Notes: generated by a model from the sequence alone, not told the origin. A DNA stretch of 64,000 nt from an uncultured Gammaproteobacteria bacterium (GCA_964576435.1 CAZNUP010000002.1:42112-106111); one strand, 5' to 3'. Positions 2,291 through 56,295 are shown, numbered from the stretch's first letter. Program-made: numbers and translations.

Positions 2291-2368
2291 AAAATTCCCG
2301 TGACGAGAAATCAAGTTCAAATACTTACTGCAACCTTTATGTTTCACGCAGCCTGAGAGCCTGCATTC

Positions 2369-5300
2369 TTGAACGATAAACTAATTTCAGCTTCGGAATT
2401 AATTAGATTAGCTTCAGAAAGAGGCTTCAGCTTTGGTCGCGGGAACCCGATGAATCGCCTCAGATATTACACAAAGATTGGGCTCATTCCTCATGCTGTA
2501 AGGAAACAGGCTCTTCCTGGACAACCATACACGGTTGGTTATTATCCAGACTACACATTGGATTTGTTACTTAAGATTCAAGGACTTCGCAAGGGTGGGC
2601 AGGATGTCTCTCAGGTTAAAGAACATATGAAGGTTGAGCAGGTTAGAGCTCATGTCAGGTCACAGCTTCCAACAGCTCAAGTTGGTGAAGGCTTAAACTC
2701 AGACAACTTATTGCACGCTTCAGAATATTTGTCCAATAATACACAAAGTTCTAGATCGATATCAAATGATACAGTTTTGGAAACCCAAAATGAAATTACT
2801 GAACTTGGAAATGATTCTGAGAAAAAGAGTGAAAAGAAAATATGGAAGTACGCTATCCCTGTTATACTCCTCTTTTTATTACTTGGTGGATTGGTCATTA
2901 CTGCCTCGAATTCTTTGTGGGGTAAACAATCTTTTTTTCAGATTGCTTCATTGCTAAACAATTCTCACAAGGAAACTGTTGAACTGGCTCAATCTCAAGG
3001 TGAAGTACTTGCGGGCTTTGATGTTAATAAGTTCTTGCAGTTCAATTCGAGGGTGAGATTTCAAAACACGTTTTTGAATCTGTCTGGCGATGAAGTGTCG
3101 ATTGACCAAGATCTGTTGACCACAAGTGAACCAACTTTTGCCACCCTGAACCTAACTGCGGGGACAAATCAGATCGTGCTTGGTGGCAACGGCACATTGG
3201 CTTGGCCAACAATAACAGGTAATCAAACTATATCATTCCCTGATGCTTCTGGAACAGTTTTATTGGCGACGAGCTCAGCAATAACCATCAACACATCGGG
3301 AAATCTTAGTGGTGGAGGAAGTGTGTCGCTTGGGGGGTCAATCACACTCACAGGGAATTCCTCGGGAGTCACAGCCACAACTTCCGCCGGATATATTCCG
3401 ATGATGGAAGCTAATGGTCAATTTGGCAACTCGATGTTGGCACAAAGTGGCGGCAATTTGTATGTGAATGGAACACAAGGCGTGACTTTGCCCAGCGTCT
3501 CCTGTGTTATCACGGAAAACGGCATCGTCACTGGCAGTGCCACATGTCCAACTCTCGGAGTGTCAGGGACACCAAACAGTATTGTTAAGTTTGTGACGTC
3601 GAACACGGTTGGGGATTCGTCAATTTCGGACACAGGAAGTGCAGTGACCATTGCCAATCCATTAACAATTACAACTGGAGGAATCACACTGACTGGATCA
3701 CAAGCTATTGATTCATCCGGAGGAACTTTATCGATTGGAACTAGTGGCCAAACTTCATTGACTCTTGGTAGAAATGCGGCACCAACAATCATTAACGGAG
3801 CGACCATTACTGCGGGACCATTGGTGCTCAACACCACAACCAATGTCGCGACATTTTCGGGACAGGTTGGAGTTGGGGGAGATCTTGATGTGTCAGGTTT
3901 TTATAGAGCAAATGGAGTGCCTGGCGTGAGTTTGGCAACAGCGTCGTGTGTTATTACGACAAACGGAATTGTGACTTCGAGTGCTGCGTGTCCTGGGAGT
4001 GGTTCGGGAGGATCAAAATGGCAACTTAATTCTGGAGTGCTGGCGCCAAATGATGTGACGCAATCATTAGCACTTGGCGGAATTTCCACAGGTTCAGCAC
4101 AAGTTTATTTTAATGCAGTTTCTGGAGATGGGACTTTTGCGGGAGCATTGGCAGCGGCCACACTTAACACAGGGCAAGGAGCAAATGAGCTCTACGCTAT
4201 GAATCAGGATGTCAGAACAAGTGATGCTCCGACGTTTGGAGGTTTGACACTTAGCAATTTAACGACCAACAATGGACTTTTGTACACGAACGGATCGGGA
4301 GTGTTGGCGCAAACCACAGCTGGAACAAGTGGACAATGTTTGGTGGGCAACACTGGGAGTGCACCAAGTTGGAGTGATTGTGGAACAGCAAGTGGAGATG
4401 ATTGGCAAAGAAATGCCGGAGCAATTTCGCCACTTAATGTCACAGACTCTTTGATCATCGGAGGGACGGCAACGAGTTCTGGAAAGTTTCAAATATATGG
4501 AGTCAGTAGCTTGAATCCAGTAGCCAGCATCTCGGCATCTTCTTCAAAAGCCGCCTTTATTGTTGACAACACGGTTGGGGATTTGTTCACAGCTTCTTCA
4601 TCAGGGCTTTCAAGATTTGTGATTAAACAGAATGGTAATATTGGGATTGGGACTAGCAATCCTGGCGGTGCATTTCAGGTTGTTGGAGGAGGAACTTCAT
4701 TTACGTTGAATAGCTCTGGTGTACTTACTTCTCAGTTTAATGTGGCAAACGATATTGTTCCCACAACAGATGCATCTAGGTCTCTGGGTAATAGCAGTAA
4801 TGGTTGGTTTTCCTTATATACTAATCAAATTCATAGCACCAACAGTGAAGATTTGTCTTTAAATTCTTCTGGAACGCAGATTTATGTTTTGGACACGCTA
4901 AATTTTGGTTCTGTATCTACAGATATTATAACTGGTACAAATGAGGATTTGGTCATTACACCGGGAGGAACGGGTAATGTTGGAATAAACACTTCTACAC
5001 CGCAGGCAAAATTCCAAGTTTTTAACTCCTCCAATTCTCAGACCGCTTCAATCTCGGCCGCAAACGGCAAGTCAGCGTTGTTAGTTGATAATACTGTAGG
5101 AGATCTAATCACTGCTTCTTCATCAGGAATAAGTAGATTCACAGTCAAACAAAACGGGGATGTGATCATCAATACTCTTGCCGCGTCAAACGCGGTGACC
5201 TATGTTGACTCCACTGGAAAACTCAATGGAGTGACACCAAATGGATCTTCAATTATGTGTCTAACCCAAGCAACAAGCGGAGCTCCACAATGGAGTGATT

Positions 5301-8300
5301 GTAACTCAGGTGGAGGAATCAGTGGCTCTGGCACTTTGAACTACATTTCTAAATTCACACCTGATGGATCAACACTTGGGAACACTGGACTGTATGAAAC
5401 ATCAGGAGCTCTTGGATATGGAACCATAGCACCACTTGCAAAGCTTGATATTCAAGGTGGAGCAACCACATCTGCAATCGCTTCATTCTCTGGAGCAACT
5501 GGAAAAGCATCTTTGGTGGTGGATAACAGTGTTGGTGATTTGTTCACTGCAAGTTCATCTGGAATGACAAGATTTGTTATTAATCAGAATGGGAACGTCG
5601 GAATTGGAACCAGTAATGCGGCAAACGCACTCGATGTTAAAGGGAATGTTACCGTTCGCGGAAATTCCACAGGAACACCTGGTGGAAGCCAAGGATTGCT
5701 TTTGGGTTACTCCTCCACTGGAAATGTTGGAAGCATTACTTCTATTTATTCAGGGAATTATTTCACCACACTTTCTCTTGTTGCAGCAGAAATAACATTT
5801 AACACTGGAGCAAGTGGTACTGAGCAAATGCGTCTCACTCAGCAGGCAACTCTTGGACTTGGAACAACAGTGCCGCTTGGTAGGCTTGATGTTCGGGGAA
5901 ATTCAACCATTGCCAATTCTGGGACAAATTCAGTGGCGACATTTTCCGGAGCAACGTCGAAAGCAGTTCTTGTTGTTGACAACTCTGGGGTTGGTGACTT
6001 GATTACTGCGTCTTCTTCAGGCATGAGCAGATTCACAGTCAAACAAAATGGTGATGTGATCATTAACTCTCTTGCAGCAGCAAACGCGGTTACCTATGTT
6101 GATTCAACTGGAAAGTTGAATGGAATTACTCCAAATGGCACTGGAACTGCACTGTGTCTGACACAAACATCATCTGGAACTCCAACATGGGCATCGTGTA
6201 ATTCAGGTGGAGGAATTTCTGGTTCAGGAACATTGAATTATATCTCCAAATTCACACCCGATGGATCAACACTTGGGAATTCTTCCATTTTTGACAACGG
6301 GAGTGTGCAAATTGGTGGAGCAACTCCTGTTGCACTGTTCAACATTGGAGCTAACAGTGATGTCAGAATCAATGGAACTGGAGATATCACAGCCAGAACA
6401 TTCAATGGCAACACTATTGCAACTGGATCTGGAAACTTAACGATTTCTGGGACAGCAAATGTTGATCAAGATTTGAGAACCGTTTCTTCACCAACATTTG
6501 CAGGACTGACACTTAGTTCACTGACAACAAACAACGGTCTTTTGTACACCAATGGATCTGGTGTGATTGCTCAAAGCGCTGCTGGTGCAACAGGGGAATG
6601 TTTGATTGGTAACACAGGATCTGCTCCAACATGGAGTTCGTGTTCATCTGCAGCATCTGACGACTGGCAAAGAAACAGTGGGGTACTTTCACCAACAAAC
6701 ATCACTGATTCACTCATTATTGGTGGAACGTCCACTGCTTCTGGAAAGTTCCAGGTTTATGGACTCTCATCACTTAATCCTGTGGCAAGCATCTCAGGTT
6801 CATCAGCAGTCGCTGCTTTAGTTGTTGATAATTCTGCTGGAGATGTGTTCACCGCATCAACATCTGGATTAACTAGATTTGTGGTAAATAAAAATGGAAA
6901 TATTGGAATCGGTACTAGTAACCCAACACGGCCGTTCCATGTTGTGGATGGAAGTTCAGTGATTTACGCTAGCAATAATATTGGCACAACTTTGGCGTAT
7001 GGTACAAGCAGTCTTGATGCCAGGAATGGATTTGTCACTTTAGGAAATAATGCTGGGTCAATAACTTATAACGGCACTGAGTTTTATCCACAAGTTTCGA
7101 ACAATGTAAATATCGGGAGAGCAAGCCTAACTTATAAGAATTTGTATCTAAATAATCTCCAAGTCCTTAACTCAGGAACAACAGCAAATGCTTCTATATC
7201 CGGGTCAACAGCATTTGCTGGTCTTGTTGTTGACAACTCTGGTGTTGGTGACTTGATTACTGCATCTTCTTCAGGGGCCAGTAGATTCACAGTCAAACAA
7301 AATGGTGATGTGGTTATTAATTCTCTTGCAGCAGCAAATGCAGTGACCTATGTTGATTCAACTGGAAAGTTGAATGGAATTACTCCAAATGCAGGAGCCA
7401 TTCAATGTTTGACTCAAACATCTTCTGGAACACCAGTGTGGGCAGCGTGTTCATCTGGTGGAGGATTGTCTGGGTCTGGAACCTTAAACTATATCTCCAA
7501 ATTCACACCAGATGGATCAACACTTGGGAACACTGGGCTGTATGAAACATCAAATGCACTTGGCTATGGAACCATTGCACCTCTAGCTAAACTTGACATT
7601 CAAGGTGGGGCAACAACATCTGCAATTGCTTCGTTCTCTGGATCAACAGGAACAGCTGCTCTGGTTGTTGATAACTCAGTGGGAGATTTATTCACTGCAA
7701 GTTCATCTGGACTTTCTAGGTTTGTGATTAAGCAAAACGGAACTGTTGGGATTGGTTTGAGTGCACCAGGAAACTTACAAATTGGAGTTGATGGTGCCGG
7801 TGCCGCGAACAACTTTACAGCTTATGGAACTACATCTGGAGGAAGGATAGTGATGAATGGAAGCGGCTTATCCAATCCCAGAGGAACTAATAATCTTTGG
7901 CTTAGGGCATCTGATCTGGTCATATCAAACGGAACCATCACTACCGTAAATAGCGATTTAACACTTGCGCCAATGTCAACGTATAACACTGTGATAACTT
8001 CGGGTAATGTGGGCATTGGCAGTGCAACACCCGGAACAACACTCGATATCACTGGGACATTGAGAGCATCAGGAGTCACCACACTTTCCAACTACACCAC
8101 AAACAATGGTCTTTTGTACACCAATGGTTCTGGTGTTGTTGCACAAACTGCAGCGGGATCAACTGGAGAGTGTTTGATTGGCAACACAGGAAGTGCACCA
8201 TCATGGAGTTCGTGTTCATCAGCAGCATCTGATGATTGGCAGAGAAATGCTGGAGTTCTTTCTCCGACAAACATAACTGATTCACTCATTATTGGTGGAA

Positions 8301-11300
8301 CTGCAACGTCTTCTGGAAAGTTTCAAATATATGGAGTCAGTAGTCTGAATCCTGTAGCCAGCATTTCTGCTTCAAGTTCACAAGCTGCATTGGTTATTGA
8401 TAACACAGTCGGAGATTTGTTCACTGCATCTTCGTCTGGACTTACAAGGTTTGTGATTAACCAAAATGGGAACGTTGGAATTGGAACTTCCAACCCAAGT
8501 TATAAACTGGATGTGGTCGGAACGAATATGCAGTTTTGGAATGGTGGGACGGGGAATGGCTTTAATTTTACTACGGCCGCTTCGGGTGGCGATGTAACCT
8601 TAACCGCAACTGGTCCAACTTCAGCTGGAGATTTCATTATTAAACCAGTTAGTACTAGTGGGTCAGATCTGATATTAACTTCGCCAAATGGTATTACCAA
8701 AGTTCGTGGTGGAGACCCGCTCTTAAATATTGAAGAGTCAAATGGCACTTTGCGATATGCTTTCTCGAAAAATACCGCTACTTTTGATTGGGCTGACTAT
8801 CCAGGAGTTTTGACATTTGATACAAATGGAATATCTTACGCTGGGGCGGCTTTGAATTTGGGCACTTCAGATAGCAACTTGGTTGCGTTAAAAACAGGGG
8901 GATCCGAGAGAATGAGAGTTGATACTAATGGCAATATCGGTGTGGGAACTACTGCTCCAATTGGTTTATTAAATGTTTCAAACAAAGCAACCGGAAAGGC
9001 TTTAACTATCCTCAATGAAACTGGAGATCAAAACATTCTTGTTGGCTCAGCTTCAGGAACAACGGAATTTGTGTTTGATCGAACTGGTGGACTGACATTG
9101 ACTGGTCTTGCAGGAAGTGCAAACTCACTAGTGTATGTTGACGCCAATGGAAAACTGACAAACACTGCCGCTGGAACAAGTGGACAGTGTTTGGTGGGAA
9201 ACACAGGAGCACCAGCATCATGGAGTTCGTGCTCAGGAGCAGCTGGAGGACTATTTTGGCAGAGAAATTCTGGAGTGTTAGCACCACAAAACATTTCTGA
9301 ATCACTCGCTATTGGGGGAACTTCCACCAGTTCAGCTCTGGCATATTTTGATGGAGTTAATGGCAATGCACTGCTTCGTGGCGGTCTATCAGTTGCAAGT
9401 TCATCGGGAGCTGCAGCTCTCACAGTTAATCAATCGTCAACTGGAGATATTTTCACAGCAAGTGCAGCGGGAGTTTCAAAATTTGTTATCACAGCGGCTG
9501 GTAACGTCGGGATTGGAACTACAGTCCCTGGGGCAAGCTTGTCCATAAATAATAGCTCAGGAACTAGTGCAGATATTGTTCAACAAGGCACTTCTTTTTA
9601 CGGATTGTTGCGCGGAAATTTAATACGAGGAGGCACCAGCTCCAGTATTTATGGCCAAATCGATCTTTATAACGGCTCCACTGGGGATTTAAATATTATT
9701 CCAAGGGGTTCAAATAACTTTACTGTAGTCACTAATTCTATTGAGCGATTTAGGATTGATGGGAACGGAAATGTCGGAGTGGGAACAACAGTTCCATTGG
9801 CAACATTAAACGTCAAGACAGTTGGAAATACTCAAACAGCTTCTATCTCGGGGACAAGTGGCACAGCAGCACTTCTTGTTGACAATACTGTTGGTGATTT
9901 GTTCACGGCCTCTTCTTCAGGAGCTTCAAGATTCACAGTCAAACAAAATGGTGATGTGATCATTAACTCTCTTGCAGCAGCAAACGCAGTTACTTATGTT
10001 GACTCAACTGGAAAATTGAATGGAATTACTCCAAATGGAACTGGAACTGCACTGTGCCTCACTCAAACTTCAAGTGGAACACCAACATGGGCATCGTGTA
10101 ATTCAGGTGGAGGAATTTCGGGTTCAGGAACACTCAACTATATTTCCAAATTTACTCCAGATGGATCAACACTGGGGAATTCTGGACTGTTTGACACTGG
10201 ATCCGCTCTTTCTTATGGAACAACTAATGCCTTAGCAACTCTGGATATCCGGTCTCAATCAGGTATCACAGGTATTGCGAGTATCTCAGGTAGCACAGCA
10301 CATGCTGCACTGGTTGTCGATAATTCTGGAGTTGGAGATATCTTCACAGCATCCAGTTCTGGTTTGACACGTTTTGTTATACAGCAAAATGGCAATGTGG
10401 CAATTGGTGGGGCAGTGCGACTTGGACAAAATGGCGGAGCAAATGATGTGCTTAATACAGCAGCTGCGATCGGAGCTCCAAGTGGTCAACTCTATTGGGG
10501 TTCACGATATCTGTGCGATTCCACAAACAACTGCGTTGGTGGTGGAGGCGGAGGAGCAATTGGTGGAGGCGGAGTGGCCAACTATATTTCTAAATTTACA
10601 CCTGATGGAAACAATATTGGCAATTCACAACTGTATGACACCGGATCGGCAATTGCCATTGGCACAACATCACCCTTGGCAACTATTGATGTCAGATCTC
10701 AATCAGGTATCACAGGTATTGCGAGTATCTCAGGTAGCACAGCACACGCGGCACTGGTTGTCGATAATTCCGGGGTCGGTGACATTTTCACTGCTTCGTC
10801 AGCGGGACTGGCAAGATTTGTGATTAAGAATAGCGGGAATATTGGAATCGGAACCACAACGACAACTGCTAAATTAACTTTGTTAACTTCAGGTGTAGGT
10901 GATGGATTCACGGCAATTAATTCTTCAACTTTGGGAGCTAATTCTGGAGCCGGGATTGTTGGGAGAACGTCAAGTGATCCAACTGGTGCAGATCAGCGGC
11001 TTGGATTTTATGTATTTGGCAGCAATGGTTCGAACGCAGCTAATTCGGCGGGAATGCTTGGGTATGCTGGCGGAGCCTGGAGTGGCAGTTCAAAACCAGC
11101 ATATTTGACGTTTGAAACAACAGCGGTTGGGTCCACGTCACGGGCAGAACAAATGAGGATTGATGCCAACGGCAACGTTGGAATTAGTAGTTCTGTTCCA
11201 GGAGCGAAACTGGATGTTTTGACCAGCGCAGGAAGCGGACAGACCGCCCTTTTTAGTAATTACGGTACTGGAGTTCCGCTCACGCTAACCAATGGTAGTG

Positions 11301-14300
11301 GATCAACATCAAATGTGTTTTCTGCGACCCGTTTTGGTTCGCAGGTGTTCAGAGTTGGTGGTACCGGCGATTATGCTATGTATGCTTCCCATACGAGTGC
11401 AACCGTTCCTGTTGGATTTATTTATAATTCCGACGTTTCCGGTACTGGGCTAAATATCCTCGGAGCTAATGGGGCTACAGGTAAACTACTTTATGTACAA
11501 TCGTGGGGTTCCACCGATTTACTTACGGTCAAAGGTAATGGGGATGTAATTATGAATGGTGGTAACATTGGAATTGGTTCCGCTTCCCCAATTGGAAAAC
11601 TCAACGTTTCAGGAGCTGCAACTGGAAAAGCTCTCACAATCTTGAATGAAACTGGCGACCAAAACATCCTCGTTGGTTCTGCCTCTGGAGTGACTGAATT
11701 TGTGTTTGACAGATCTGGAGGACTGACTTTGACTGGTCTTTCCGGAAGTGCAAACTCACTTGTGTATGTTGATGCTAATGGGAAACTCACAAACACTGCT
11801 GCGGGAACAAGTGGACAGTGTTTGGTTGGGAACACTGGTTCTCCAGCATCGTGGAGTGATTGTGGAACTGCATCTGGAGATGATTGGCAAAGAAATGCTG
11901 GAGCGTTGTCACCAAAGAATATTTCTGACAGTTTGATCATTGGTGGAACTGCAACATCATCTGGAAAGTTCCAGGTTTATGGAGTCAGTAGTCTGAATCC
12001 TGTAGCCAGCATTTCAGCTTCAAGTTCACAAGCCGCATTGGTTATTGATAATACGGTCGGAGATTTGTTCACGGCAAGTTCGTCTGGACTAACAAGATTT
12101 GTGATCCAGCAGAATGGTAATGTTGGAATTGGATATTCCAATCCTTCAGGTGCAAAATTGGCAATCAATGGAGGGGTCGGAATTGGAACAACAACAGCAA
12201 GTTATGCGCTTGATGTCGAAGGAAATATCAGGTCTAGAAGCACAGGGTATATTGGAACAAATGCAGAAGATCTGGGACTATACTTGGGTCCAGACACTTC
12301 AAGATTTATCTTTGCTCGGTCTGGTGGAACTTTGTCAATTGGTGCAGGTTCTAATGACAGGATAACCCTTCTAAGTGGAGGCAATGTCGGTATCAATTCA
12401 ACAACACCTGGAGCAAATTTTGATGTTACAGGCACAGCACGCATTTCAGGAGTTACAACACTTTCCAACTACACCACAAACAATGGTTTGTTATACACAA
12501 ATGGTTCAGGTGTTATTGCTCAAACTGCTGCTGGTGCAACAGGGGAATGTTTGATTGGCAATACAGGAAGTGCACCATCATGGAGTTCATGTTCAGCAGC
12601 AGCTGGAGGACTATTCTGGCAGAGAAATTCTGGAGTGTTAGCACCACAAAACATTTCTGAATCACTCGCTATTGGGGGAACTTCCACCAGTTCAGCTTTG
12701 GCATATTTTGATGGAGTAAATGGCAATGCACTGCTTCGTGGTGGAGCTTACATTGCATCATCTTCTGGAAAAGCAGCACTTACTGTTAACCAATCATCAA
12801 CTGGAGATTTGTTCACTGCATCTGCAGCAGGCGCATCGAGATTTGTGATTAACAATGTGGGGAACGTTGGAGTGGGAACTAGTAATCCGACCAATAAGTT
12901 GTATGTGGCCGCTGGAGCAATCGCTGCAGGATCAAATGGTGTTTTATTCTCGGGTGATATTTCGGGGGGGAATATGTATTCAGCTCAACTCGGAGTCTTT
13001 AACTCTGGTTCTGCAAATGCTCCAACGAGATTGCAATTTGGAGATTTGACCGCTGGGGAAGGGACAGCTGTTATTGAATCAGCTCGTACCGGCTCACTTA
13101 CTGGCTATTTAGCTTTCCAAACTCGCAACACAAATTATGTTGAAGCAATGAGGATTAATTCTGATGGGAACGTTGGTATTAACACGACACTTCCTGTTAA
13201 TAAACTTGATGTGAGTGGTTCGGCAGCCTTTGGTTCGTATGCGGGAGCTAACTCTGCCCCATCAAATGGCCTAATTGTGAGCGGGAACGTCGGTGTGGGG
13301 ACGACGACACCAGGAGGAATTCTTGAAGTGTCTGGACACCTGACAGGTTGGAATCCGTTTGTATTGTTCGAAGACACAGGTGATCCGGGTGCTGGGGCAA
13401 CGACGCTTGAGATCAAAAATTCTCAGTCTGATTTAAAAATTCGCGCTTACGGTTCAACAGCTCCAAGTTATCTGGCCAATGCGGTTGGTTTGTGGTCCGA
13501 CGCAAACGACATGATTAACGGTGTTGGTTCAGGGAAGAAAATTTATTTGGCTTCAAATGATAATTATGCAAACCCTGAAGTTACAATTGCCGCCGGGAAT
13601 GTTGGAATTGGGAGTGTCACTCCAGGCTTTAAATTTGATGTTAATGGAAACACTAATTCAACGGCATATTATGTTGGTGGAGTGGCTGGTGCAGCAAGTG
13701 TCAGTAACTCATGTGTTAATGTCACAAACGGCATTGTTACATCAGCTGGAACATGCGCATTAGCAGGTAATCAGTGGCAACTCAATTCAGGTGTGATTGC
13801 ACCATATGATGTTACACAAAGTGTTGCTATTGGTGGGACAGCAACAAGTTCAGCACTTGTATATTTCAACGGAGTCAATGGCAATGCACTGCTTCGTGGT
13901 GGACTATCAGTTGCTTCATCATCTGGTGCAGCAGCTCTCACTGTTAACCAATCATCAACAGGGGATATCTTCACAGCTTCTGCTGCTGGAGCTTCAAAGT
14001 TTGTGATTACTGCAGCGGGGAACGTTGGGATTGGCAGCAGTGCTCCTGGCAATAAGTTTGTGGTAAATGGTGGAGCTTTGGTTGATGGGGGATCGGTTGG
14101 AGTTATTAAGGGAGATAATTCCACTGGCAGCTTTACTGCACATCTTAATCTCTTGAATAACGGGACAGCGGGAAATGTAGTTCGACTCGGCTTTGGGGAT
14201 GAAACTGCGGGAGAAGGCGTCGCGGCAATCGAGTCAGCAAGAACCGGGTCACAGCAAGGCTATCTGTCGTTCCGAACAAGAAACGCCACGATGAATGAAG

Positions 14301-17300: not shown

Positions 17301-20300
17301 ATCCGACTGCAAAATTAGCTTTTGGAGCAGCAACGACGGCGGCGGGGGGAATTGATTTTGGAGGAGATGTGAGTTTGTATCGTTCAGCTGCCGATATATT
17401 AAAGACCGGAGATACATTTTCAATTAGATCTACGATTGGAATCACTGCAACTGGTCCAGCTCTTATTGTCGGCGGCGACGGATTGTCAGATGGTGTCGGA
17501 AATGTTGGCATTAACAAAGGAAGTATTGAGTATTACAGTAGTGGTTATGGACTTAACCTTGGTAGGCCGAATATTGGACCGATTGAATCTATAATTAGCC
17601 GTTCAACTGATGGTTCAACTGGTTACATTGATATCGGAAATAATACTGGTTGGACCGCAACAACACTGCAAGCTTCTGGTGGCAACGTTGGAATCGGCAC
17701 GACCGTGCCCATGGCAACACTGGATGTCCGAAGAAGCAATGGCACAATTGCGACGGCATCAATTTCCGGAGCAACGAGCTTTGCAGGCCTGGTTGTTGAT
17801 AATTCTGGGGTGGGAGATTTGTTTACAGCTTCTTCATCTGGCCTTACAAGATTTGTAATTAATAATGTTGGAGATGTGTTGCCTGGGACTGATGACGCTC
17901 AAGATCTGGGATCCAACGCACTCAGGTGGAGAGATTTGTATCTCGGATCAGACACGTTGCATATTGGCACGTCAACCTCAGATGAATATACGTTAAGCTA
18001 TAACACTGCATCAAACTATCTTGGGTTTAATGTCAATGGCAGTGGGAATTCGGAAGTGGTTTTTGATGCAAATGGGAATGTTGGAATTGGCAGCATCACA
18101 CCTGGATCAAAACTTGATGTTGCCGGAAGTATATCGATGTCTGGGTCACAAACGTTGACGTCAACAGGGACACTTGGAATTGGAACAGCCAATCAAACAG
18201 CCCTCACACTCGGTCGACCAGGAGCACCAACTGTGATTGATGGGTCGACGATCACAATTAATGGAGCACTTATTAATGGAGGAGGAAGTGCAACAATTTC
18301 AGGGACATTGGGGCTTGGTGGAGATGCTTCGTTCTCAGCAAAACTGACATTGGACTCAACAACACCTCAGATTAATGCAACAAACAACAGACCGCTGCAA
18401 CTTGGATTTATGAATACAGGGTCGGTTCAGTTTATGAATGCTTCTAATTACGTTGATGCAAACAACAATCTTTATATTAATGGTGTATTAATTTCTGGAT
18501 CCGCAGTCCAGGGTCATTGGCAGAGGAATAGTGGGGCTGTGGCACCAACTAATATCACTGACTCGCTGCTTGTTGGTGGGACGTCAACAGCGTCTGCTAA
18601 GTTCCAAGTTTATGGTTTGTCTGCATTGAATCCAGTGGCGTCAATTTCGGGTTCAAGTTCCAAGGCAGCACTTATTGTGGATAATACAGTCGGTGATTTA
18701 TTTGCTGCGAGTTCATCAGGATTGTCAAGGTTTGTCATTAATCAAAATGGCAACGTCGGAATTGGAACGACAAATCCCGCAGCACTTTTTGCAGCTGGGC
18801 AGTCGAATCAGTTTAGAGTTAATTCAGCTGGAACCGCATATATAACAAATGCAGCAGGGTCTATATCGTTAGCATCCTATATCGATGATGAGTGGGGAAC
18901 TTTTATTACGACTATTGGTGGAAGTGGGCAAAATTGGAAAATTTCTCCTAATCCAGGAAATAGAACAGCGATTGCATATAGAAATTTCCAGATCGCAGAT
19001 TCGTATAATCCATTCCAGTTTACTTTTAGAACAACGGTGGAGGATGGCAGCGGTGCAAATAACTTAACATTGTCAAGCTATTTCGAACCGTGGCAAACAA
19101 ATCGAGGTAATATGGCGGCATTATATGTTCCATACACTGTTGACGCAGCTGCCTCGCAAAATGGCATTGTTAGAGGGATTTATGTTGACTCAACTGAAAC
19201 CAGCCTGAACGGGTTTACAAATAATTTGATTGATCTACGCGTTGGTGGGGTGCCAAAGTTTGTTGTTGGAGCATCTGGCACTTCGACTACGGCCACGGTG
19301 TCTGGAACAACCAGTTCTGCAGCACTTGTGGTTGATAACTCGGGAGTTGGGGATGTGTTTAGTGCCAGCGCGGCTGGGGTGTCGAGGTTTGTTGTTACAA
19401 GTGGTGGAAATATTGGAATTGGCACCAACATCCCTGGATATAAACTGCAAGTTGCAAGTGGGCAAATTGCTGTTGCTGATGGGTCTGCTGGAACTCCTTC
19501 ATATAGTTTCTTTAATGATCCTGACAATGGCATGTTTAGACCTGGACCAAACACAATTGGCTTAAGTGCTGGGGGATCACAGGTTTTTTATGGAACGTTG
19601 GGGGGATCAGTGGTTTCAGGCTATATGGTTGGGGATGCAAGCCCGCTAACCCTTGGAAACAATAATGATTGGGGAGTGGGTGAGCAAATGCAGTTTGATT
19701 ATGCTGATGATAGCACTGTGGTTTCTCGAATTGGCTCGAATCAACATGCATCGGGAGATTATAGTTTGGATTTTTACACTACAACTGATGGTGGGTCAAG
19801 TTTGCCAGCGAGACTGCGAATTGGCCATGATGGAAACATTGGCATAAACACAACTGCACCTCTGTCACTATTGGATGTTCGAGGAATAAGTGGAACGAAT
19901 GCTTATTCAGGCATATCCTCGGTGGCAACAGTTTCTGGAAAAACATCGTTTGCAGCAATGGTTGTTGACAACTCAGGAGTAGGAGACCTGTTTACTGCCT
20001 CATCATCAGGCCTGTCTAGGTTTGTGATCTCACAAAATGGGAATATTGGGATTGGGACAACAGTTCCTGATGCTAAGGTTACAATTCTTGGAGGAAATGA
20101 CATTAAATTTACCGGAGTGTCTGCTCAAAATCAGGCATCGTTCATTGGTAGTAATGCCACGGATGATTTCAGTATTTTGGCTGGAATTGGGAACGGCAAG
20201 ACATTGACCATTGGAGCAAACGGCAGTTTGACTTCATTGAATAGAATAATTTTGTCGTCCACGGCGCTGCAAATTTTGCCTGGAAACACCAATGTTGGTA

Positions 20301-21763
20301 TTAACACTTCTGCGCCCGCCGCGGTTGTGGATATCAGAGGTTCTCAAGGATCAAACACCATGTCTGGAATAATTCCTGTGGCATCAATTTCAGGTCAAAC
20401 ATCGTTTGCAGCACTTGTTGTGAACAACAATTTCAGCACTGGAGATATTTTTACGGCATCAGCATCGGGACTTAATAGGTTTGTGATCAAAAATAATGGC
20501 TGGGTGGGGATTGGAACTGCGAACCCGTCAGCGACGTTGGATCTTGTCGGGAACGCAAGCATTTCTGGGCAGCTAGTTTTCCCTGGGTCAACAAACATAA
20601 ATGGAAGCTGGATTCGTGGAGATGGGGGAAATAGTCATTTGGAAATCGGAACTGGTACCATTCAAGATGCAAATGCCCGGCTTTATATTACTTCGGCTGG
20701 AAATATTGGCGTCAATACAACAAATCCAGGTCAGACATTTGATATAAATGGATCACTGAGGGTGAGAACATCGGTTGCTGGGACGGATACAAGGACACTT
20801 TGTGTGCCTGACACAACGGGAGTTGTTGAATTTGTGAACGGAGCTTGTGGAACTTCATCTCTTAGATATAAAGAAAATGTCAAAGATATTGGATATGGTT
20901 TGGATCAAATCAAGCAACTAAAACCAGTCTTCTTCAACTATATTCGAGATTCGGAGGTACCAAATGACTTGGATTTGAAAGACGATAGAACAAAGAGACG
21001 AATCGGTTTTATTGCTGAAGAAATGCAGCAAGTAGTTCCTGAGGTTGTTATTTGGCAAAATGGACAAATTGAGAGCATTGACTATTCCTACTTAACAGCT
21101 CTCTTAACCAAGGGTGTGCAAGACCTGGCAGGCGAGGTTGACGCTTTGAAGGTGGATGTGTCAAACATCGCTCCTGATATTTCCAATCAGTTGTCAGAGA
21201 TTCCGCAAATTAAAGCTGATTTGGCTCAAACTCAGTCAGAAATGGCATCGGTGTCAGCACAACTGGCTGATGTGTCGACAAGACAGGCTTCTGATTCAGC
21301 AAAACTCGCAGAACTTTTGGAGAAGGGGATGGCGACAAACTCTGGAAACATTAATGGAGCGACGGTTTCTGGAGACCTTAAAGTTCTCGGTATTACTGAG
21401 CTTGCTAAGACGGTTATTGGTGGCAAATTGTCAGTTGGACTTGTGATGATCGATGACATTAAAGCGGAGATTTCAAGTTTGACGGGACTTGTCAAAATTG
21501 ATGGCATCTTGTCGATCTTAAAGCTTCGAGTTGATACAGGTGATGTGGCAGCAGCTTCGGCCGGGAAAGCCACGATTTTGTCAGGCGAATCTGAAATTGA
21601 AATCACAACAACAGCGCTGACACCTGATTCGATGATCTTTGCTACACCAGAGGATGTGCCAGTGGCTGTGTCGACGACTAAGACTGGGGGAAATAAATTC
21701 AAGATTAAGCTTGCTAGCCCTGCAGTTTCAGATATTAAGATTAGTTGGTGGATTGTAAATTAG
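2369..21763 (+). CDS. Giant (6464-aa) membrane-anchored repetitive fibre-like protein with an N-terminal MerR-type HTH domain, one TM helix, tandem Gly/Ser/Thr-rich repeat modules and a C-terminal peptidase S74 (intramolecular chaperone auto-processing) domain
   Basis: A single uninterrupted ORF of 19.4 kb. The start is TTG at 2369; an alternative ATG is at 2450. The N-terminus LISASELIRLASERGFS...NRLRYYTKIGLIP...YTLDLLLKIQGLRKGGQDVSQVKEHM fits the MerR HTH pattern. A hydrophobic helix IWKYAIPVILLFLLLGGLVITA lies about 160 aa in. There are more than 15 copies of modules such as ...ALVVDNSGVGDLFTASSSGLTRFVINQNGNVGIGT..., CL(V/I)GNTGSAPSWSxC...WQRN and WQLNSGVLAPNDVTQSLAIGG.... The C-terminus has GTSSLRYKENV...LDQIKQLKPVFFNY...RIGFIAEEMQQVVPEVV...IDYSYLTALLTKGVQDL, which is the S74 ICA-domain signature. 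Confidence 0.85.
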   Translation: MNDKLISASELIRLASERGFSFGRGNPMNRLRYYTKIGLIPHAVRKQALPGQPYTVGYYPDYTLDLLLKIQGLRKGGQDVSQVKEHMKVEQVRAHVRSQLPTAQVGEGLNSDNLLHASEYLSNNTQSSRSISNDTVLETQNEITELGNDSEKKSEKKIWKYAIPVILLFLLLGGLVITASNSLWGKQSFFQIASLLNNSHKETVELAQSQGEVLAGFDVNKFLQFNSRVRFQNTFLNLSGDEVSIDQDLLTTSEPTFATLNLTAGTNQIVLGGNGTLAWPTITGNQTISFPDASGTVLLATSSAITINTSGNLSGGGSVSLGGSITLTGNSSGVTATTSAGYIPMMEANGQFGNSMLAQSGGNLYVNGTQGVTLPSVSCVITENGIVTGSATCPTLGVSGTPNSIVKFVTSNTVGDSSISDTGSAVTIANPLTITTGGITLTGSQAIDSSGGTLSIGTSGQTSLTLGRNAAPTIINGATITAGPLVLNTTTNVATFSGQVGVGGDLDVSGFYRANGVPGVSLATASCVITTNGIVTSSAACPGSGSGGSKWQLNSGVLAPNDVTQSLALGGISTGSAQVYFNAVSGDGTFAGALAAATLNTGQGANELYAMNQDVRTSDAPTFGGLTLSNLTTNNGLLYTNGSGVLAQTTAGTSGQCLVGNTGSAPSWSDCGTASGDDWQRNAGAISPLNVTDSLIIGGTATSSGKFQIYGVSSLNPVASISASSSKAAFIVDNTVGDLFTASSSGLSRFVIKQNGNIGIGTSNPGGAFQVVGGGTSFTLNSSGVLTSQFNVANDIVPTTDASRSLGNSSNGWFSLYTNQIHSTNSEDLSLNSSGTQIYVLDTLNFGSVSTDIITGTNEDLVITPGGTGNVGINTSTPQAKFQVFNSSNSQTASISAANGKSALLVDNTVGDLITASSSGISRFTVKQNGDVIINTLAASNAVTYVDSTGKLNGVTPNGSSIMCLTQATSGAPQWSDCNSGGGISGSGTLNYISKFTPDGSTLGNTGLYETSGALGYGTIAPLAKLDIQGGATTSAIASFSGATGKASLVVDNSVGDLFTASSSGMTRFVINQNGNVGIGTSNAANALDVKGNVTVRGNSTGTPGGSQGLLLGYSSTGNVGSITSIYSGNYFTTLSLVAAEITFNTGASGTEQMRLTQQATLGLGTTVPLGRLDVRGNSTIANSGTNSVATFSGATSKAVLVVDNSGVGDLITASSSGMSRFTVKQNGDVIINSLAAANAVTYVDSTGKLNGITPNGTGTALCLTQTSSGTPTWASCNSGGGISGSGTLNYISKFTPDGSTLGNSSIFDNGSVQIGGATPVALFNIGANSDVRINGTGDITARTFNGNTIATGSGNLTISGTANVDQDLRTVSSPTFAGLTLSSLTTNNGLLYTNGSGVIAQSAAGATGECLIGNTGSAPTWSSCSSAASDDWQRNSGVLSPTNITDSLIIGGTSTASGKFQVYGLSSLNPVASISGSSAVAALVVDNSAGDVFTASTSGLTRFVVNKNGNIGIGTSNPTRPFHVVDGSSVIYASNNIGTTLAYGTSSLDARNGFVTLGNNAGSITYNGTEFYPQVSNNVNIGRASLTYKNLYLNNLQVLNSGTTANASISGSTAFAGLVVDNSGVGDLITASSSGASRFTVKQNGDVVINSLAAANAVTYVDSTGKLNGITPNAGAIQCLTQTSSGTPVWAACSSGGGLSGSGTLNYISKFTPDGSTLGNTGLYETSNALGYGTIAPLAKLDIQGGATTSAIASFSGSTGTAALVVDNSVGDLFTASSSGLSRFVIKQNGTVGIGLSAPGNLQIGVDGAGAANNFTAYGTTSGGRIVMNGSGLSNPRGTNNLWLRASDLVISNGTITTVNSDLTLAPMSTYNTVITSGNVGIGSATPGTTLDITGTLRASGVTTLSNYTTNNGLLYTNGSGVVAQTAAGSTGECLIGNTGSAPSWSSCSSAASDDWQRNAGVLSPTNITDSLIIGGTATSSGKFQIYGVSSLNPVASISASSSQAALVIDNTVGDLFTASSSGLTRFVINQNGNVGIGTSNPSYKLDVVGTNMQFWNGGTGNGFNFTTAASGGDVTLTATGPTSAGDFIIKPVSTSGSDLILTSPNGITKVRGGDPLLNIEESNGTLRYAFSKNTATFDWADYPGVLTFDTNGISYAGAALNLGTSDSNLVALKTGGSERMRVDTNGNIGVGTTAPIGLLNVSNKATGKALTILNETGDQNILVGSASGTTEFVFDRTGGLTLTGLAGSANSLVYVDANGKLTNTAAGTSGQCLVGNTGAPASWSSCSGAAGGLFWQRNSGVLAPQNISESLAIGGTSTSSALAYFDGVNGNALLRGGLSVASSSGAAALTVNQSSTGDIFTASAAGVSKFVITAAGNVGIGTTVPGASLSINNSSGTSADIVQQGTSFYGLLRGNLIRGGTSSSIYGQIDLYNGSTGDLNIIPRGSNNFTVVTNSIERFRIDGNGNVGVGTTVPLATLNVKTVGNTQTASISGTSGTAALLVDNTVGDLFTASSSGASRFTVKQNGDVIINSLAAANAVTYVDSTGKLNGITPNGTGTALCLTQTSSGTPTWASCNSGGGISGSGTLNYISKFTPDGSTLGNSGLFDTGSALSYGTTNALATLDIRSQSGITGIASISGSTAHAALVVDNSGVGDIFTASSSGLTRFVIQQNGNVAIGGAVRLGQNGGANDVLNTAAAIGAPSGQLYWGSRYLCDSTNNCVGGGGGGAIGGGGVANYISKFTPDGNNIGNSQLYDTGSAIAIGTTSPLATIDVRSQSGITGIASISGSTAHAALVVDNSGVGDIFTASSAGLARFVIKNSGNIGIGTTTTTAKLTLLTSGVGDGFTAINSSTLGANSGAGIVGRTSSDPTGADQRLGFYVFGSNGSNAANSAGMLGYAGGAWSGSSKPAYLTFETTAVGSTSRAEQMRIDANGNVGISSSVPGAKLDVLTSAGSGQTALFSNYGTGVPLTLTNGSGSTSNVFSATRFGSQVFRVGGTGDYAMYASHTSATVPVGFIYNSDVSGTGLNILGANGATGKLLYVQSWGSTDLLTVKGNGDVIMNGGNIGIGSASPIGKLNVSGAATGKALTILNETGDQNILVGSASGVTEFVFDRSGGLTLTGLSGSANSLVYVDANGKLTNTAAGTSGQCLVGNTGSPASWSDCGTASGDDWQRNAGALSPKNISDSLIIGGTATSSGKFQVYGVSSLNPVASISASSSQAALVIDNTVGDLFTASSSGLTRFVIQQNGNVGIGYSNPSGAKLAINGGVGIGTTTASYALDVEGNIRSRSTGYIGTNAEDLGLYLGPDTSRFIFARSGGTLSIGAGSNDRITLLSGGNVGINSTTPGANFDVTGTARISGVTTLSNYTTNNGLLYTNGSGVIAQTAAGATGECLIGNTGSAPSWSSCSAAAGGLFWQRNSGVLAPQNISESLAIGGTSTSSALAYFDGVNGNALLRGGAYIASSSGKAALTVNQSSTGDLFTASAAGASRFVINNVGNVGVGTSNPTNKLYVAAGAIAAGSNGVLFSGDISGGNMYSAQLGVFNSGSANAPTRLQFGDLTAGEGTAVIESARTGSLTGYLAFQTRNTNYVEAMRINSDGNVGINTTLPVNKLDVSGSAAFGSYAGANSAPSNGLIVSGNVGVGTTTPGGILEVSGHLTGWNPFVLFEDTGDPGAGATTLEIKNSQSDLKIRAYGSTAPSYLANAVGLWSDANDMINGVGSGKKIYLASNDNYANPEVTIAAGNVGIGSVTPGFKFDVNGNTNSTAYYVGGVAGAASVSNSCVNVTNGIVTSAGTCALAGNQWQLNSGVIAPYDVTQSVAIGGTATSSALVYFNGVNGNALLRGGLSVASSSGAAALTVNQSSTGDIFTASAAGASKFVITAAGNVGIGSSAPGNKFVVNGGALVDGGSVGVIKGDNSTGSFTAHLNLLNNGTAGNVVRLGFGDETAGEGVAAIESARTGSQQGYLSFRTRNATMNEVGRFDHTGNLGIGYSSSLNGKLVVNGNVGIGTSTANAALEVVGTTGMLLKANSSSAGFTIKDRASVPGDQLIFEGNTGNYTVFNVGTNGATSGSPKQSGFALWTVDPDSTDDATQFQVQSNPTYGGVVFTQKFGSGAQGDYPISLQSVWDQVSTPSQLVLGTGGNVGVGSSSPGNKLDVTGTLRASGVTTLSNYTTNNGLLYTNGSGVIAQTAAGSTGQCLVGATGSAPSWAACAAGSRWQLNSGVLAPNDVTQSLAIGGTATGSALAYFDGVNGNALLRGGLSVASSSGKAALTVNQSSTGDLFTASAAGASRFVINNAGNVGIGTSNPTQKLVVGGATSELELYSDSDLGTIDSRALGGSSSRWLVINPSGGNVGIGTTGVSNSKFLVYGDSGASATNSLAIFGDNLGMSTDVNRAKVTIGNTDGISELLLGQDSTHGLLFNWNYNATAGNAYGVLETYGGNNPLALQTAGGNVGIGSITPGYKLDVNGNTNSTGYYVGGVAGASVTGQCVTTTNGIVTASATCPATGGSKWQLNSGVLAPNDVTQSLAIGGTATSSALVYFDGVNGNALLRGGLSVASSSGKAALTVNQSSTGDIFTASAAGASKFVITSAGNVGVNTTNPAALLEIHSSNNYSNSGLVLTNNVGVVSGGLSLGGSGEVIFSSSNLNYLSIQAGGFGIANSINDSYSGLLQVPNGLQVNPASASSIGLSVFGESGQTANLSNWYDSSSNLLFSVNNRGYIANEGNITGLNNIPGSLSVNDILSVAATSSAYPAFRLNATTGQAAMVINQDDPGGDLFTASAAGSPKVVISNVGFLGVGTTTPGGIGHFRQDANGGVRVYVDNASNGSSASVGIALRATLLTGDGTFNIAKYGSGYSDNPNWTNAGVISAWNDVAGIRISSFNGLAFETGNNAVRGSWTNTGNLGINTTAPLSLFDVRGVNGTNAYSGISSVATISGQTSFATLVVDNSGVGDLFTASSSGLTRFVINQNGNIGIGTTYPTAKLAFGAATTAAGGIDFGGDVSLYRSAADILKTGDTFSIRSTIGITATGPALIVGGDGLSDGVGNVGINKGSIEYYSSGYGLNLGRPNIGPIESIISRSTDGSTGYIDIGNNTGWTATTLQASGGNVGIGTTVPMATLDVRRSNGTIATASISGATSFAGLVVDNSGVGDLFTASSSGLTRFVINNVGDVLPGTDDAQDLGSNALRWRDLYLGSDTLHIGTSTSDEYTLSYNTASNYLGFNVNGSGNSEVVFDANGNVGIGSITPGSKLDVAGSISMSGSQTLTSTGTLGIGTANQTALTLGRPGAPTVIDGSTITINGALINGGGSATISGTLGLGGDASFSAKLTLDSTTPQINATNNRPLQLGFMNTGSVQFMNASNYVDANNNLYINGVLISGSAVQGHWQRNSGAVAPTNITDSLLVGGTSTASAKFQVYGLSALNPVASISGSSSKAALIVDNTVGDLFAASSSGLSRFVINQNGNVGIGTTNPAALFAAGQSNQFRVNSAGTAYITNAAGSISLASYIDDEWGTFITTIGGSGQNWKISPNPGNRTAIAYRNFQIADSYNPFQFTFRTTVEDGSGANNLTLSSYFEPWQTNRGNMAALYVPYTVDAAASQNGIVRGIYVDSTETSLNGFTNNLIDLRVGGVPKFVVGASGTSTTATVSGTTSSAALVVDNSGVGDVFSASAAGVSRFVVTSGGNIGIGTNIPGYKLQVASGQIAVADGSAGTPSYSFFNDPDNGMFRPGPNTIGLSAGGSQVFYGTLGGSVVSGYMVGDASPLTLGNNNDWGVGEQMQFDYADDSTVVSRIGSNQHASGDYSLDFYTTTDGGSSLPARLRIGHDGNIGINTTAPLSLLDVRGISGTNAYSGISSVATVSGKTSFAAMVVDNSGVGDLFTASSSGLSRFVISQNGNIGIGTTVPDAKVTILGGNDIKFTGVSAQNQASFIGSNATDDFSILAGIGNGKTLTIGANGSLTSLNRIILSSTALQILPGNTNVGINTSAPAAVVDIRGSQGSNTMSGIIPVASISGQTSFAALVVNNNFSTGDIFTASASGLNRFVIKNNGWVGIGTANPSATLDLVGNASISGQLVFPGSTNINGSWIRGDGGNSHLEIGTGTIQDANARLYITSAGNIGVNTTNPGQTFDINGSLRVRTSVAGTDTRTLCVPDTTGVVEFVNGACGTSSLRYKENVKDIGYGLDQIKQLKPVFFNYIRDSEVPNDLDLKDDRTKRRIGFIAEEMQQVVPEVVIWQNGQIESIDYSYLTALLTKGVQDLAGEVDALKVDVSNIAPDISNQLSEIPQIKADLAQTQSEMASVSAQLADVSTRQASDSAKLAELLEKGMATNSGNINGATVSGDLKVLGITELAKTVIGGKLSVGLVMIDDIKAEISSLTGLVKIDGILSILKLRVDTGDVAAASAGKATILSGESEIEITTTALTPDSMIFATPEDVPVAVSTTKTGGNKFKIKLASPAVSDIKISWWIVN
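5981..6300 (+). repeat. Intragenic DNA repeat unit of about 320 bp inside the giant ORF; a copy at about 92% identity lies at 9899-10218 and diverged copies near 5100 and 7200
   Basis: Direct comparison of the 5981-6300 and 9899-10218 segments shows long identical runs, for example ggtgatgtgatcattaactctcttgcagcagcaaacgc. Confidence 0.8.
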
Positions 21764-41828: not shown

Positions 41829-41938
41829 CCTATAAATTTAAAGTCTATTTTAAATAGTGACTCGTATAAAACTCATATTCGAACTGGAAAAATTGTGTTC
41901 AAAAGCAGGTATATAGAAAAATTAAGTATTTAAAATAT

Positions 41939-54015: not shown

Positions 54016-54028
54016 AGCAGCGAGTTTA

Positions 54029-55171: not shown

Positions 55172-55172
55172 C

Positions 55173-56291: not shown

Positions 56292-56295
56292 AATT

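Follow-up and report, generated by a model that had tools for sequence, protein, structure and literature searches.

One open reading frame (ORF) in a 64,000-nucleotide stretch of DNA from an uncultured Gammaproteobacteria bacterium (GCA_964576435.1 CAZNUP010000002.1:42112-106111; the whole stretch is referred to here as the window) encodes a giant protein of 6,464 residues, in which a MerR-type winged helix-turn-helix (HTH) head is followed by one transmembrane (TM) helix, a very long repetitive shaft, a Peptidase S74 chaperone module and a terminal β-sandwich. The giant protein is very probably a trimeric surface fibre, and self-cleavage of its S74 module is probable, judged from motif conservation and by analogy with characterised S74 proteins; binding of DNA by the head is favoured with more caution, as is the composite reading of a trimeric, S74-matured surface attachment fibre of ~0.4 µm whose heads, on the cytoplasmic side, are bound to DNA at the membrane. 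The fibre half of the protein is understandable by analogy with known systems, and the cytoplasmic half is the interesting part. An initial annotation of the window, made from the sequence alone, had named the order head, TM helix, fibre and S74 domain and could match it to no described family; every element of that order is borne out, and the searched literature holds no counterpart, but the architecture is not a one-off, its head belonging to a family of at least 300 protein clusters. The elements discussed are the following:

2369..21763, plus strand: giant ORF, 6,464 amino acids (aa), TTG start, stop codon at 21761-21763
2350..2357, plus strand: leader motif AGCCTGAG, found once in the 64-kb window, 11 nt 5' of the TTG
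2369..2653, plus strand: head, aa 1-95, a cytoplasmic winged HTH of MerR type whose helices 1 and 2 are joined by the family loop G-[FV]-x-F-G-x-G-x-P
2654..2851, plus strand: polar, low-complexity juxtamembrane linker, aa 96-161, ending KKSEKKIWK
2852..2908, plus strand: single TM helix, aa 162-180, predicted signal-anchor with its N-terminus inside
2909..4078, plus strand: membrane-proximal ectodomain, aa 181-570
4079..20752, plus strand: fibre shaft, aa 571-6128, ~52 diverged copies of a ~70-aa module, delimited by iterated hidden Markov model (HMM) search
20855..21049, plus strand: Peptidase S74 chaperone core, aa 6163-6227 (PF13884, 47.3 bits)
20855-20857, plus strand: predicted nucleophile Ser6163, in SSLRYKEN, at the start of the PF13884 match
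20870-20872, plus strand: predicted dyad residue Lys6168, in SSLRYKEN
21083..21337, plus strand: 85-residue helix, aa 6239-6323
21338..21556, plus strand: β-rich connector, aa 6324-6396
21557..21760, plus strand: terminal six-stranded β-sandwich, aa 6397-6464, ending WWIVN

Placing the head needed profile and fold evidence, because its subtype is divergent. Pfam MerR (PF00376) and MerR_1 (PF13411) both match aa 30-88 below threshold, at 19.1-20.5 bits against a gathering cut-off of 28.2 and at 17.7-20.3 bits against 21.6, respectively; of the Pfam families named in the initial annotation, only Peptidase_S74 is matched above its cut-off. A single-sequence search of the PDB with the head returned only a spurious match to mS26. 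An AlphaFold2 (AF2) model of aa 1-100 from a two-sequence alignment (predicted local distance difference test, pLDDT, 76) has the MerR winged-HTH topology b1-a1-a2-b2-b3-a3-a4, with a strand, helix 1 (8-17), helix 2 (27-36), a wing hairpin (44-47, 55-60), helix 3 (63-75) and helix 4 (80-86), and the top matches of this model in a Foldseek search of the PDB are all MerR regulators. A profile of 35 heads from the wider family matches MerR of Bacillus megaterium (4ua1, E=5.7e-7) and a MerR-family regulator (3gpv, 1.7e-4), with weaker matches to TnrA, GlnR and CadR, and Pfam MerR_1 is matched by 23 of these 35 heads at E≤0.01 (best 1.6e-8). Sequence alignments to MerR begin at the recognition helix (position ~31) and those to the PDB entries end at ~90, helix 1 and the G-[FV]-x-F-G-x-G-x-P loop being peculiar to the family. 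The head of the giant protein is a divergent MerR subtype with an insertion of 8-9 residues between helices 1 and 2, and the assignment of the N-terminal ~90 aa to the MerR type is upheld by the AF2 fold, Foldseek, the family profile and the head of a syntenic ortholog. The likeness to MerR proteins does not extend beyond the HTH: the head lacks a dimerisation helix and an effector domain, helix 4 being succeeded by a low-confidence helix and the polar linker.

Binding of DNA is favoured because MerR homology and fold, a basic surface, the conserved residues R32, Y33 and R45, the existence of tandem heads and a recombinase-like ortholog head all point that way. Net charge is positive in each of the 35 sampled heads (mean +6.7, range +1 to +14), and R32 and Y33, of the LRYY recognition-helix motif, and R45, of wing 1, are near-invariant across the family. 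These three positions are ones which we take to be DNA-backbone contacts in the structures of CueR, BmrR and MerR. Upstream of the giant gene, no sigma-70-like promoter on the plus strand passed the scan, and upstream of family genes no common operator or dyad was found besides the AGCCTGAG leader motif.

The orientation of the head follows from the membrane helix. Residues 162-180 form the only Kyte–Doolittle peak above 1.6 in 6,464 aa (peak value 2.48), and the 15 aa that precede this segment contain five lysines, the 15 aa that follow only one; the positive-inside rule, applied to this cluster of Lys and Arg on the N-terminal side, places the head in the cytoplasm. The single hydrophobic helix of the initial annotation is upheld, together with an N-in orientation by charge, and its ~70-aa linker is corrected to 66 aa; AF2 confidence falls after aa 88, and the linker is unconserved in comparison with the syntenic contig L001 or with P0001, a small family member encoded there. 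Beyond the membrane, the base of the fibre (aa ~300-500) is highly conserved with the syntenic ortholog (alignment A1), and scans of GTDB genomes and JGI metagenomes with this fibre-base alignment returned nothing. The giant protein contains 15 C-x13-C pairs, the first two forming loops at aa 379 and 527, and export is supported because all of the Cys pairs lie in the ectodomain.

The shaft accounts for most of the ectodomain, and the initial estimate of ~5,900 aa of fibre-like repeats is matched by ~52 modules (52 matches to the iterated HMM, aa 574-6128) with recurrent motifs of the form ...VVDNxxGDLFTASSSG...FVIxQNGNVGIGTxxP.... No Pfam model matches the shaft; PHROG tail-fibre families do, with phrog_9942 reaching E=9.5e-21, and a single-sequence match (4e-4) links it to the Bdellovibrio fibre protein Bd2133. 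The composition of the giant protein (G 14.5%, S 12.5%, T 10.4%, A 9.5%, N 8.3%) is that of a fibre. The gene was also considered as a target of a diversity-generating retroelement, and this was rejected, no template-like repeat of any part of it being present elsewhere in the window.

C-terminal to the shaft, PF13884 matches at 47.3 bits (E=2.6e-12), well above its cut-off of 22, beginning exactly at Ser6163, and the sequence SSLRYKEN aligns with the SDRRYK, SDIRYK and SDERFK (SDxRxK) motifs of homologs, leaving the Ser/Lys dyad intact. Profile matches of the S74 region include tail fibre 8jov (8e-16), Bd2133 (9e-15), the ICA domain of MYRF (7dc3, 1e-13) and a long-tail-fibre distal subunit (6f45, 4e-12). 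The S74 domain at which the initial annotation ended the protein is present with its dyad, and it is not the end: ~237 aa follow, comprising a helix, a connector and a sandwich. The 85-residue helix (helix 139-223 of the modelled segment, AF2 pLDDT ~85-92) is presumed to be the trimeric coiled coil of the chaperone module. The connector is modelled with low confidence (pLDDT 45-56) and is conserved with homologs (alignment A4), which keep the pattern …TVSGDLKVLGxTxLAxTxIGGxLxVGL…, whereas the terminal sandwich is modelled at pLDDT >90 and is predicted to be lectin-like, with Foldseek matches to the C-terminus of the cyanophage Pam1 tailspike (E=4.9e-4) and the Klebsiella K1-lyase C domain, and to other Klebsiella capsule depolymerases, the foot of the R2 pyocin fibre and the agglutinin of Helix pomatia. 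Pfam K1-lyase_C also matches the sandwich weakly (E=0.004).

The ORF itself is as the initial annotation had it, running without break or frameshift from 2369 to 21763 over 30% of the window; for DNA of ~43% GC, a chance origin of an open frame of 6,464 codons can be excluded. An in-frame TGA (2354-2356) lies just 5' of the TTG start. The public record P0026 (6,437 aa) is identical from Met28 onwards, its start being the first ATG, and helix 1 of the HTH is thereby lost. The TTG start, or at least translation of the stretch coding for aa 6-27, is preferred over Met28, because residues of that stretch are kept among relatives (I6, E10-I12, A15, G19, F20, F22-P27). Within the gene, DNA repeats are 60-90% identical, the best pair covering 268 nt at 90%; collapse of repeats in a short-read assembly is unlikely, because copies of such divergence are resolvable by short reads. 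The junction from head and TM helix to fibre base is colinear with the independent contig L001 and with P0069, a relative 35% identical to the giant protein across the head, TM and post-TM region, and a further relative of 4,501 aa is identical in two separate assemblies.

A large family of bitopic membrane proteins shares the head. When 1.84 billion cluster representatives were searched exhaustively by HMMER with the profile of the head, 300 were recovered at E≤1e-3 and 163 at E≤1e-10, where a word-index search with the giant protein's N-terminus had found one homolog only. Layouts were counted for the best 150 of the 300 representatives, 149 of which carry the head, nearly always at the N-terminus. 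Exactly one TM helix is predicted in 112 of the 149, a median of 34 aa after the head, and K+R is enriched before it (3.1 vs 1.8); among those lacking a TM helix, 28 of 34 end within 60 aa of the head and are fragments or short forms. Ectodomains range from tens of residues to 6,284 aa (median 161), and those of ten mid-size members gave no Pfam matches. Eight members carry tandem double heads, which fit a module acting on DNA as a dimer, because such modules normally work as dimers. The full order of head, TM helix, fibre, S74 and sandwich recurs in at least five other clusters (P0069, P0040, P0050, P0142 and P0042), and the sandwich with its WW[VI][VI]N end also terminates many members of ~220 aa as well as P0159, P0098, P0157, P0076 and P0149. 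The giant protein has the defining traits of this family, a head matching alignments A2/A3, one TM helix within ~120 aa and a variable ectodomain, often ending WW[VI][VI]N; the simplest form of the family is head, TM helix and sandwich, and the giants look like this unit expanded by a fibre and an S74 module that have been placed between TM helix and sandwich. P0069 (1,585 aa), which has the complete order and is 34-35% identical to the giant protein at both ends, is probably a paralog in the giant's own genome. In a limited collection of literature searched, neither membrane-integral MerR proteins nor S74 fibres in the Candidate Phyla Radiation (CPR) have been described, and the family as such is undescribed there; public labels of relatives read 'hypothetical' or 'tail fiber domain-containing', and these uninformative labels together with the truncated public start at Met28 make the architecture easy to miss.

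At five loci, a homologous protein of ~650-750 aa, predicted to have ~9-10 TM helices and ending in a TPR domain, is encoded within ~2 kb of a family gene (L002, 5811-7904; L005, 6778-9039; L088, 8990-11203; L089, 12486-14582; L090, 15289-17253), immediately adjoining it in four of the five. It begins 7 nt after a minimal MerR-TM gene of ~200 aa in L088 and L089 and ~100 nt after P0120 in L005. The TM part of this protein has no Pfam match, and no homolog is encoded in the 64-kb window; the protein may be a functional partner, perhaps a membrane protein of glycosyltransferase- or ligase-like kind.

The syntenic ortholog of the giant gene is on contig L001 (Logan SRR23592405), a fibre gene that lies directly 3' of atpC and runs off the contig end. 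Its head is a canonical MerR HTH (PF00376, 55.4 bits) followed by a single TM helix. This head is most like the HTHs carried by IS607-type serine recombinases and like small proteins that consist of a MerR HTH, one TM helix and an ectodomain of ~100 aa. The same contig encodes, upstream of the ATP synthase operon, P0001, which combines a head of the window type with a TM helix and a small ectodomain; P0040 holds the equivalent position on contig L004. Since two MerR subtypes are found on orthologous fibres, selection appears to act on the presence of a MerR-type DNA-binding head at the cytoplasmic end and not on one operator specificity. The leader motif AGCCTGAG recurs 10 nt before the TTG of both MerR-TM genes of L001 (9983-9990 and 17338-17345), whose heads are of different subtypes, and on L004 (7843-7850), where it precedes what is probably the true start of P0040. 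Its flanks could form short hairpins with differing stems, and no Rfam match was found for the leader; the motif could be either an RNA element, Shine–Dalgarno-like or of leader type, or a site in the DNA. For P0040 (gene 8001-12839, L004), the start that was called seems too far downstream: NDKLISTEELI..., which is homologous to residues 2-12 of the giant protein, is coded ~126 nt upstream of the call (~7869-8000), with no in-frame ATG, GTG or TTG near this stretch and possibly an ATT start, and three of the four related genes have TTG starts.

The giant gene is chromosomal and cellular, as its housekeeping neighbours and the lack of phage genes attest. Genes for the ATP synthase gamma, beta and epsilon subunits precede it, the giant gene lying directly downstream of atpC; a TM-anchored protein of 584 aa (opposite strand), leucyl-tRNA synthetase (LeuRS), ComEA, ComEC and an AI-2E transporter are encoded on its 3' side, and farther downstream arginyl-tRNA synthetase (ArgRS), an M16 peptidase, NDK, two tRNAs, a sortase, a PEGA protein, MreB and WecG. 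No capsid, portal, terminase or integrase gene was found among its neighbours in the window. Anchoring by the sortase (gene at 37869-38516) was considered and rejected, the C-terminus of the giant protein being WWIVN with no LPXTG. Relatives with an organism label are all Candidatus Microgenomates, Candidatus Shapirobacteria or 'Patescibacteria group', and the window's LeuRS has no close match among GTDB species representatives, the best (45% identical) being a Blackburnbacteria metagenome-assembled genome; by these sequence comparisons, the organism carrying the giant gene is a poorly sampled, ultrasmall bacterium of the Microgenomates group of the CPR.

Taken together, the sequence and topology rules place the HTH (aa 1-95) in the cytoplasm, with aa 162-180 as signal-anchor and ~6,280 residues exported. 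The S74 module would then trimerise, template folding of the shaft from the C-terminus backwards and cut itself at Ser6163, an assembly step proposed because the Ser/Lys dyad is intact and S74 modules behave in this way in phage fibres and in the mosaic adhesive trimer (MAT) fibres of Bdellovibrio. The mature product would be a trimeric shaft of ~5,980 residues per chain on three TM helices; scaled like the Bdellovibrio fibre Bd3182, it would by rough estimate reach ~0.4 µm, longer than a typical CPR cell, and would probably reach and bind a host or partner cell, while the C-terminal fragment carrying the lectin-like sandwich would be released or loosely attached. At the inner face of the membrane, three positively charged MerR heads would be clustered and most likely bind DNA, tying the fibre base to the nucleoid as RacA does or binding DNA from the membrane in the manner of ToxR-type regulators. 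The guesses offered in the initial annotation, an adhesin with a DNA-binding tail or a signal-transducing fibre, stand as the leading hypotheses.

Several points weigh against this account. A trimeric fibre provides three heads, where the usual number for MerR is two; the head of the giant protein falls under the Pfam gathering thresholds; and promoter distortion in the canonical MerR style is unlikely, because the HTH turn carries an insertion and both dimerisation helix and effector domain are missing. S74 cleavage, proposed from motif conservation, would moreover detach a terminal sandwich that is conserved across the family, which is puzzling, and the cleaved fragment may either stay associated or act as a released factor. 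The same departures from DNA-binding MerR proteins, the insertion and the absent dimerisation helix, lend some credit to a head that binds no DNA and acts as an adaptor, by which the base of the fibre would dock to a partner in the cytoplasm, for instance a cytoskeletal protein or chaperone. The minimal layout of HTH, TM helix and small β domain mirrors RodZ, whose HTH binds MreB; P0001 directly follows mreB-wecG on L001; and protein-binding members of the MerR fold exist in CbpM and DafA, which have DnaJ/Hsp70-type partners. In the window, however, mreB-wecG (40821-42643) is not beside a family gene, and the neighbours of other family genes are unrelated, while the family-wide basic charge, the retention of LRYY and the wing Arg, the likeness of the ortholog head to recombinase DNA-binding HTHs and tandem-head variants suggestive of dimer-like DNA recognition all favour DNA as the ligand, so that an adaptor role is considered unlikely. 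An artefactual origin, by assembly chimera, repeat collapse or erroneous fusion of a small HTH-TM gene to a fibre gene, is very improbable: the source is apparently a metagenome-derived assembly, the shaft is repetitive and small stand-alone HTH-TM proteins do exist, but repeat divergence, the open frame, the colinear junction in L001 and P0069, the recurrence of the architecture in clusters from other samples and the 4,501-aa relative found twice all speak for a real gene.

If the head does bind DNA, it might do so as a transcription factor freed by contact or force, through cleavage in the linker or TM helix (regulated intramembrane proteolysis) in a manner resembling Notch or MYRF. The parts required are present in the DNA-binding head, the 66-aa unstructured linker and the single TM helix, the family as a whole, with its constant head and variable ectodomain, is built like families of sensors, and MYRF, whose ICA domain is matched by the S74 region, demonstrates that S74 membrane proteins can be transcription factors. 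Such a switch is nevertheless improbable, as the S74 module lies ~5,980 residues away across the membrane and so could not release the head, the window contains neither a linked site-2 protease nor another linked partner, the difference of head subtype between orthologous fibres is awkward for a specific regulon, and no operator was identified, the leader motif being common to genes with different head types. A related and rather unlikely proposal, to be taken as a whole, regards the MerR-head/TM family as a CPR-specific, direct coupling of cell-surface events to the chromosome, in which, for the giant members, a pull on, or engagement of, the ~0.4-µm fibre would reach the DNA-bound heads through clustering or proteolytic release, so that gene expression would be switched or the nucleoid be placed at the site of host contact, possibly with the ~10-TM/TPR protein as partner. 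It would amount to a pathway for sensing force or contact, made out of a MerR domain and a phage tail fibre. Least credible is a prophage or phage-derived tail-fibre gene that works in a virion: PHROG tail-fibre and S74 matches and a sandwich like those of tailspike C-termini are what such a gene would show, but the flanks (ATP synthase, LeuRS, ComEA/ComEC, ArgRS, MreB) are without phage genes, the position directly 3' of atpC is kept in the window and on L001, a cytoplasmic head with a TM anchor is incompatible with incorporation into a virion, and a scan of viral contigs with the head alignment (A2) found nothing.

Comparison with known systems places the fibre and the head in different company. 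The fibre with its S74 module ranks as a very large new representative of the S74 fibres. For the preferred reading of a DNA-binding, membrane-anchored fibre, the closest described cellular analogue of the fibre part is the MAT class of Bdellovibrio bacteriovorus, a bacterium living on other bacteria: cell-encoded trimeric fibres such as Bd3182 and Bd2133 (Caulton et al. 2024, PMC10769870). Many of them have at their end an S74 chaperone-protease that carries an SDxxxK motif, others β-sandwich or lectin tips, and both the self-cleavage of S74 and the presence of fibres at the surface were demonstrated by experiment (PMC10769870). These proteins measure ~1,000 aa (~55 nm; Bd3182, about 55 nm for ~760 mature residues) and have a cleavable signal peptide and a conserved, β-rich N-domain of ~130 aa that is thought to bind the predator surface (PMC10769870). 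The giant protein appears, from sequence, to share with them a cell-encoded β-helical kind of fibre, related shaft modules and an S74 or adhesive tip, other MAT entries being matched besides Bd2133; it differs in being six times longer, in joining S74 and terminal sandwich in one chain, and in its anchor, an N-terminal HTH with an internal TM helix standing where MATs have signal peptide and N-domain. Host attachment in CPR bacteria has been described so far in terms of type IV pili and a few predicted adhesins (PMC11665869).

With the S74-tipped fibres and tailspikes of phages the giant protein shares the S74 module with its Ser/Lys dyad, GNVGIGTxxP-type motifs, PHROG matches and a tailspike-like sandwich, but its gene is chromosomal, it is far longer, it has a membrane anchor at the N-terminus in place of baseplate docking, and domains follow its S74. 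Examples of the phage proteins are K1F endosialidase, T5 pb1 and the T4-like long tail fibre distal subunit. The head shares winged-HTH fold, LRYY..GL.P motif and profile homology with MerR regulators (MerR, CueR, SoxR, BmrR; the short TnrA and GlnR), which are small soluble dimers with a C-terminal dimerisation helix that forms an antiparallel coiled coil, an effector-binding region and, as their target, a dyad operator in promoters with a 19-20 bp spacer, whereas here a linker joins the head to a TM helix and a giant ectodomain. RacA of Bacillus subtilis, a MerR-fold protein that ties the chromosome to the cell pole, is soluble and reaches the membrane via DivIVA; in the giant protein the supposed tether would be direct, through the TM helix. 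ToxR, CadC, TcpP and RodZ resemble it in having an N-terminal cytoplasmic HTH, one TM helix and an extracytoplasmic domain, but the HTH is OmpR-type in ToxR and XRE-type in RodZ, as against MerR-type here, and their periplasmic domains are small, with neither fibre nor S74. To our knowledge, MYRF is the only described class joining a DNA-binding domain, S74/ICA and a TM helix in one chain. Its order is DNA-binding domain, ICA, TM helix, with cleavage freeing the DNA-binding domain, whereas the giant protein has DNA-binding domain, TM helix, fibre and S74; self-release in the MYRF manner was rejected, the head and S74 lying on opposite sides of the membrane.

How CPR bacteria, or Patescibacteria, find, hold and sense their hosts is largely obscure, and the giant fibre is a concrete candidate, derived from phage fibres and parallel to the prey-recognition fibres of Bdellovibrio. 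The bitopic membrane proteins that share its head make up a sizeable family. Should the head bind DNA, they would be the first proteins of the MerR type that are integral to the membrane and would provide a direct link between envelope and chromosome in organisms with very few conventional regulators; the recurrence of the layout in hundreds of uncharacterised relatives hints at such a link.

Some neighbouring genes merit description. The comEA/comEC genes (26639-28459) lie ~5 kb downstream of the giant gene, and in L005 (5125-5907 / 6001-6681) the minimal family gene P0120 is divergent from an adjacent dprA and comM-like gene; these neighbours may link DNA-binding membrane proteins to DNA uptake, or coincidence may explain them. 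The convergent neighbour of the giant gene (21996-23750, minus strand) encodes the 584-aa protein, with one N-terminal TM helix and a large exported domain, whose sole match is weak (DUF5722, E=4.6e-4) and which may be a surface glycoside-hydrolase-like protein. At 47947-51936 (minus strand), a protein of 1,329 aa consists almost wholly of Ser/Ala/Pro/Thr tri- to hexapeptide repeats, and this gene accounts for a strong GC skew at 48-52 kb; over its last ~60 aa it is similar to the C-terminal end of the neighbouring ORF of 184 aa (47391-47945, minus strand), the common pattern being ATW.T..RP.KP..GTLG.NT....LE.W.G..WY, and neither protein matches Pfam. Five co-directional genes (52583-57411, minus strand; 238, 240, 380, 372 and 371 aa), none matching Pfam, stand between a methyltransferase gene and glycosyltransferase/RmlD genes and may constitute a cell-surface polysaccharide cluster.

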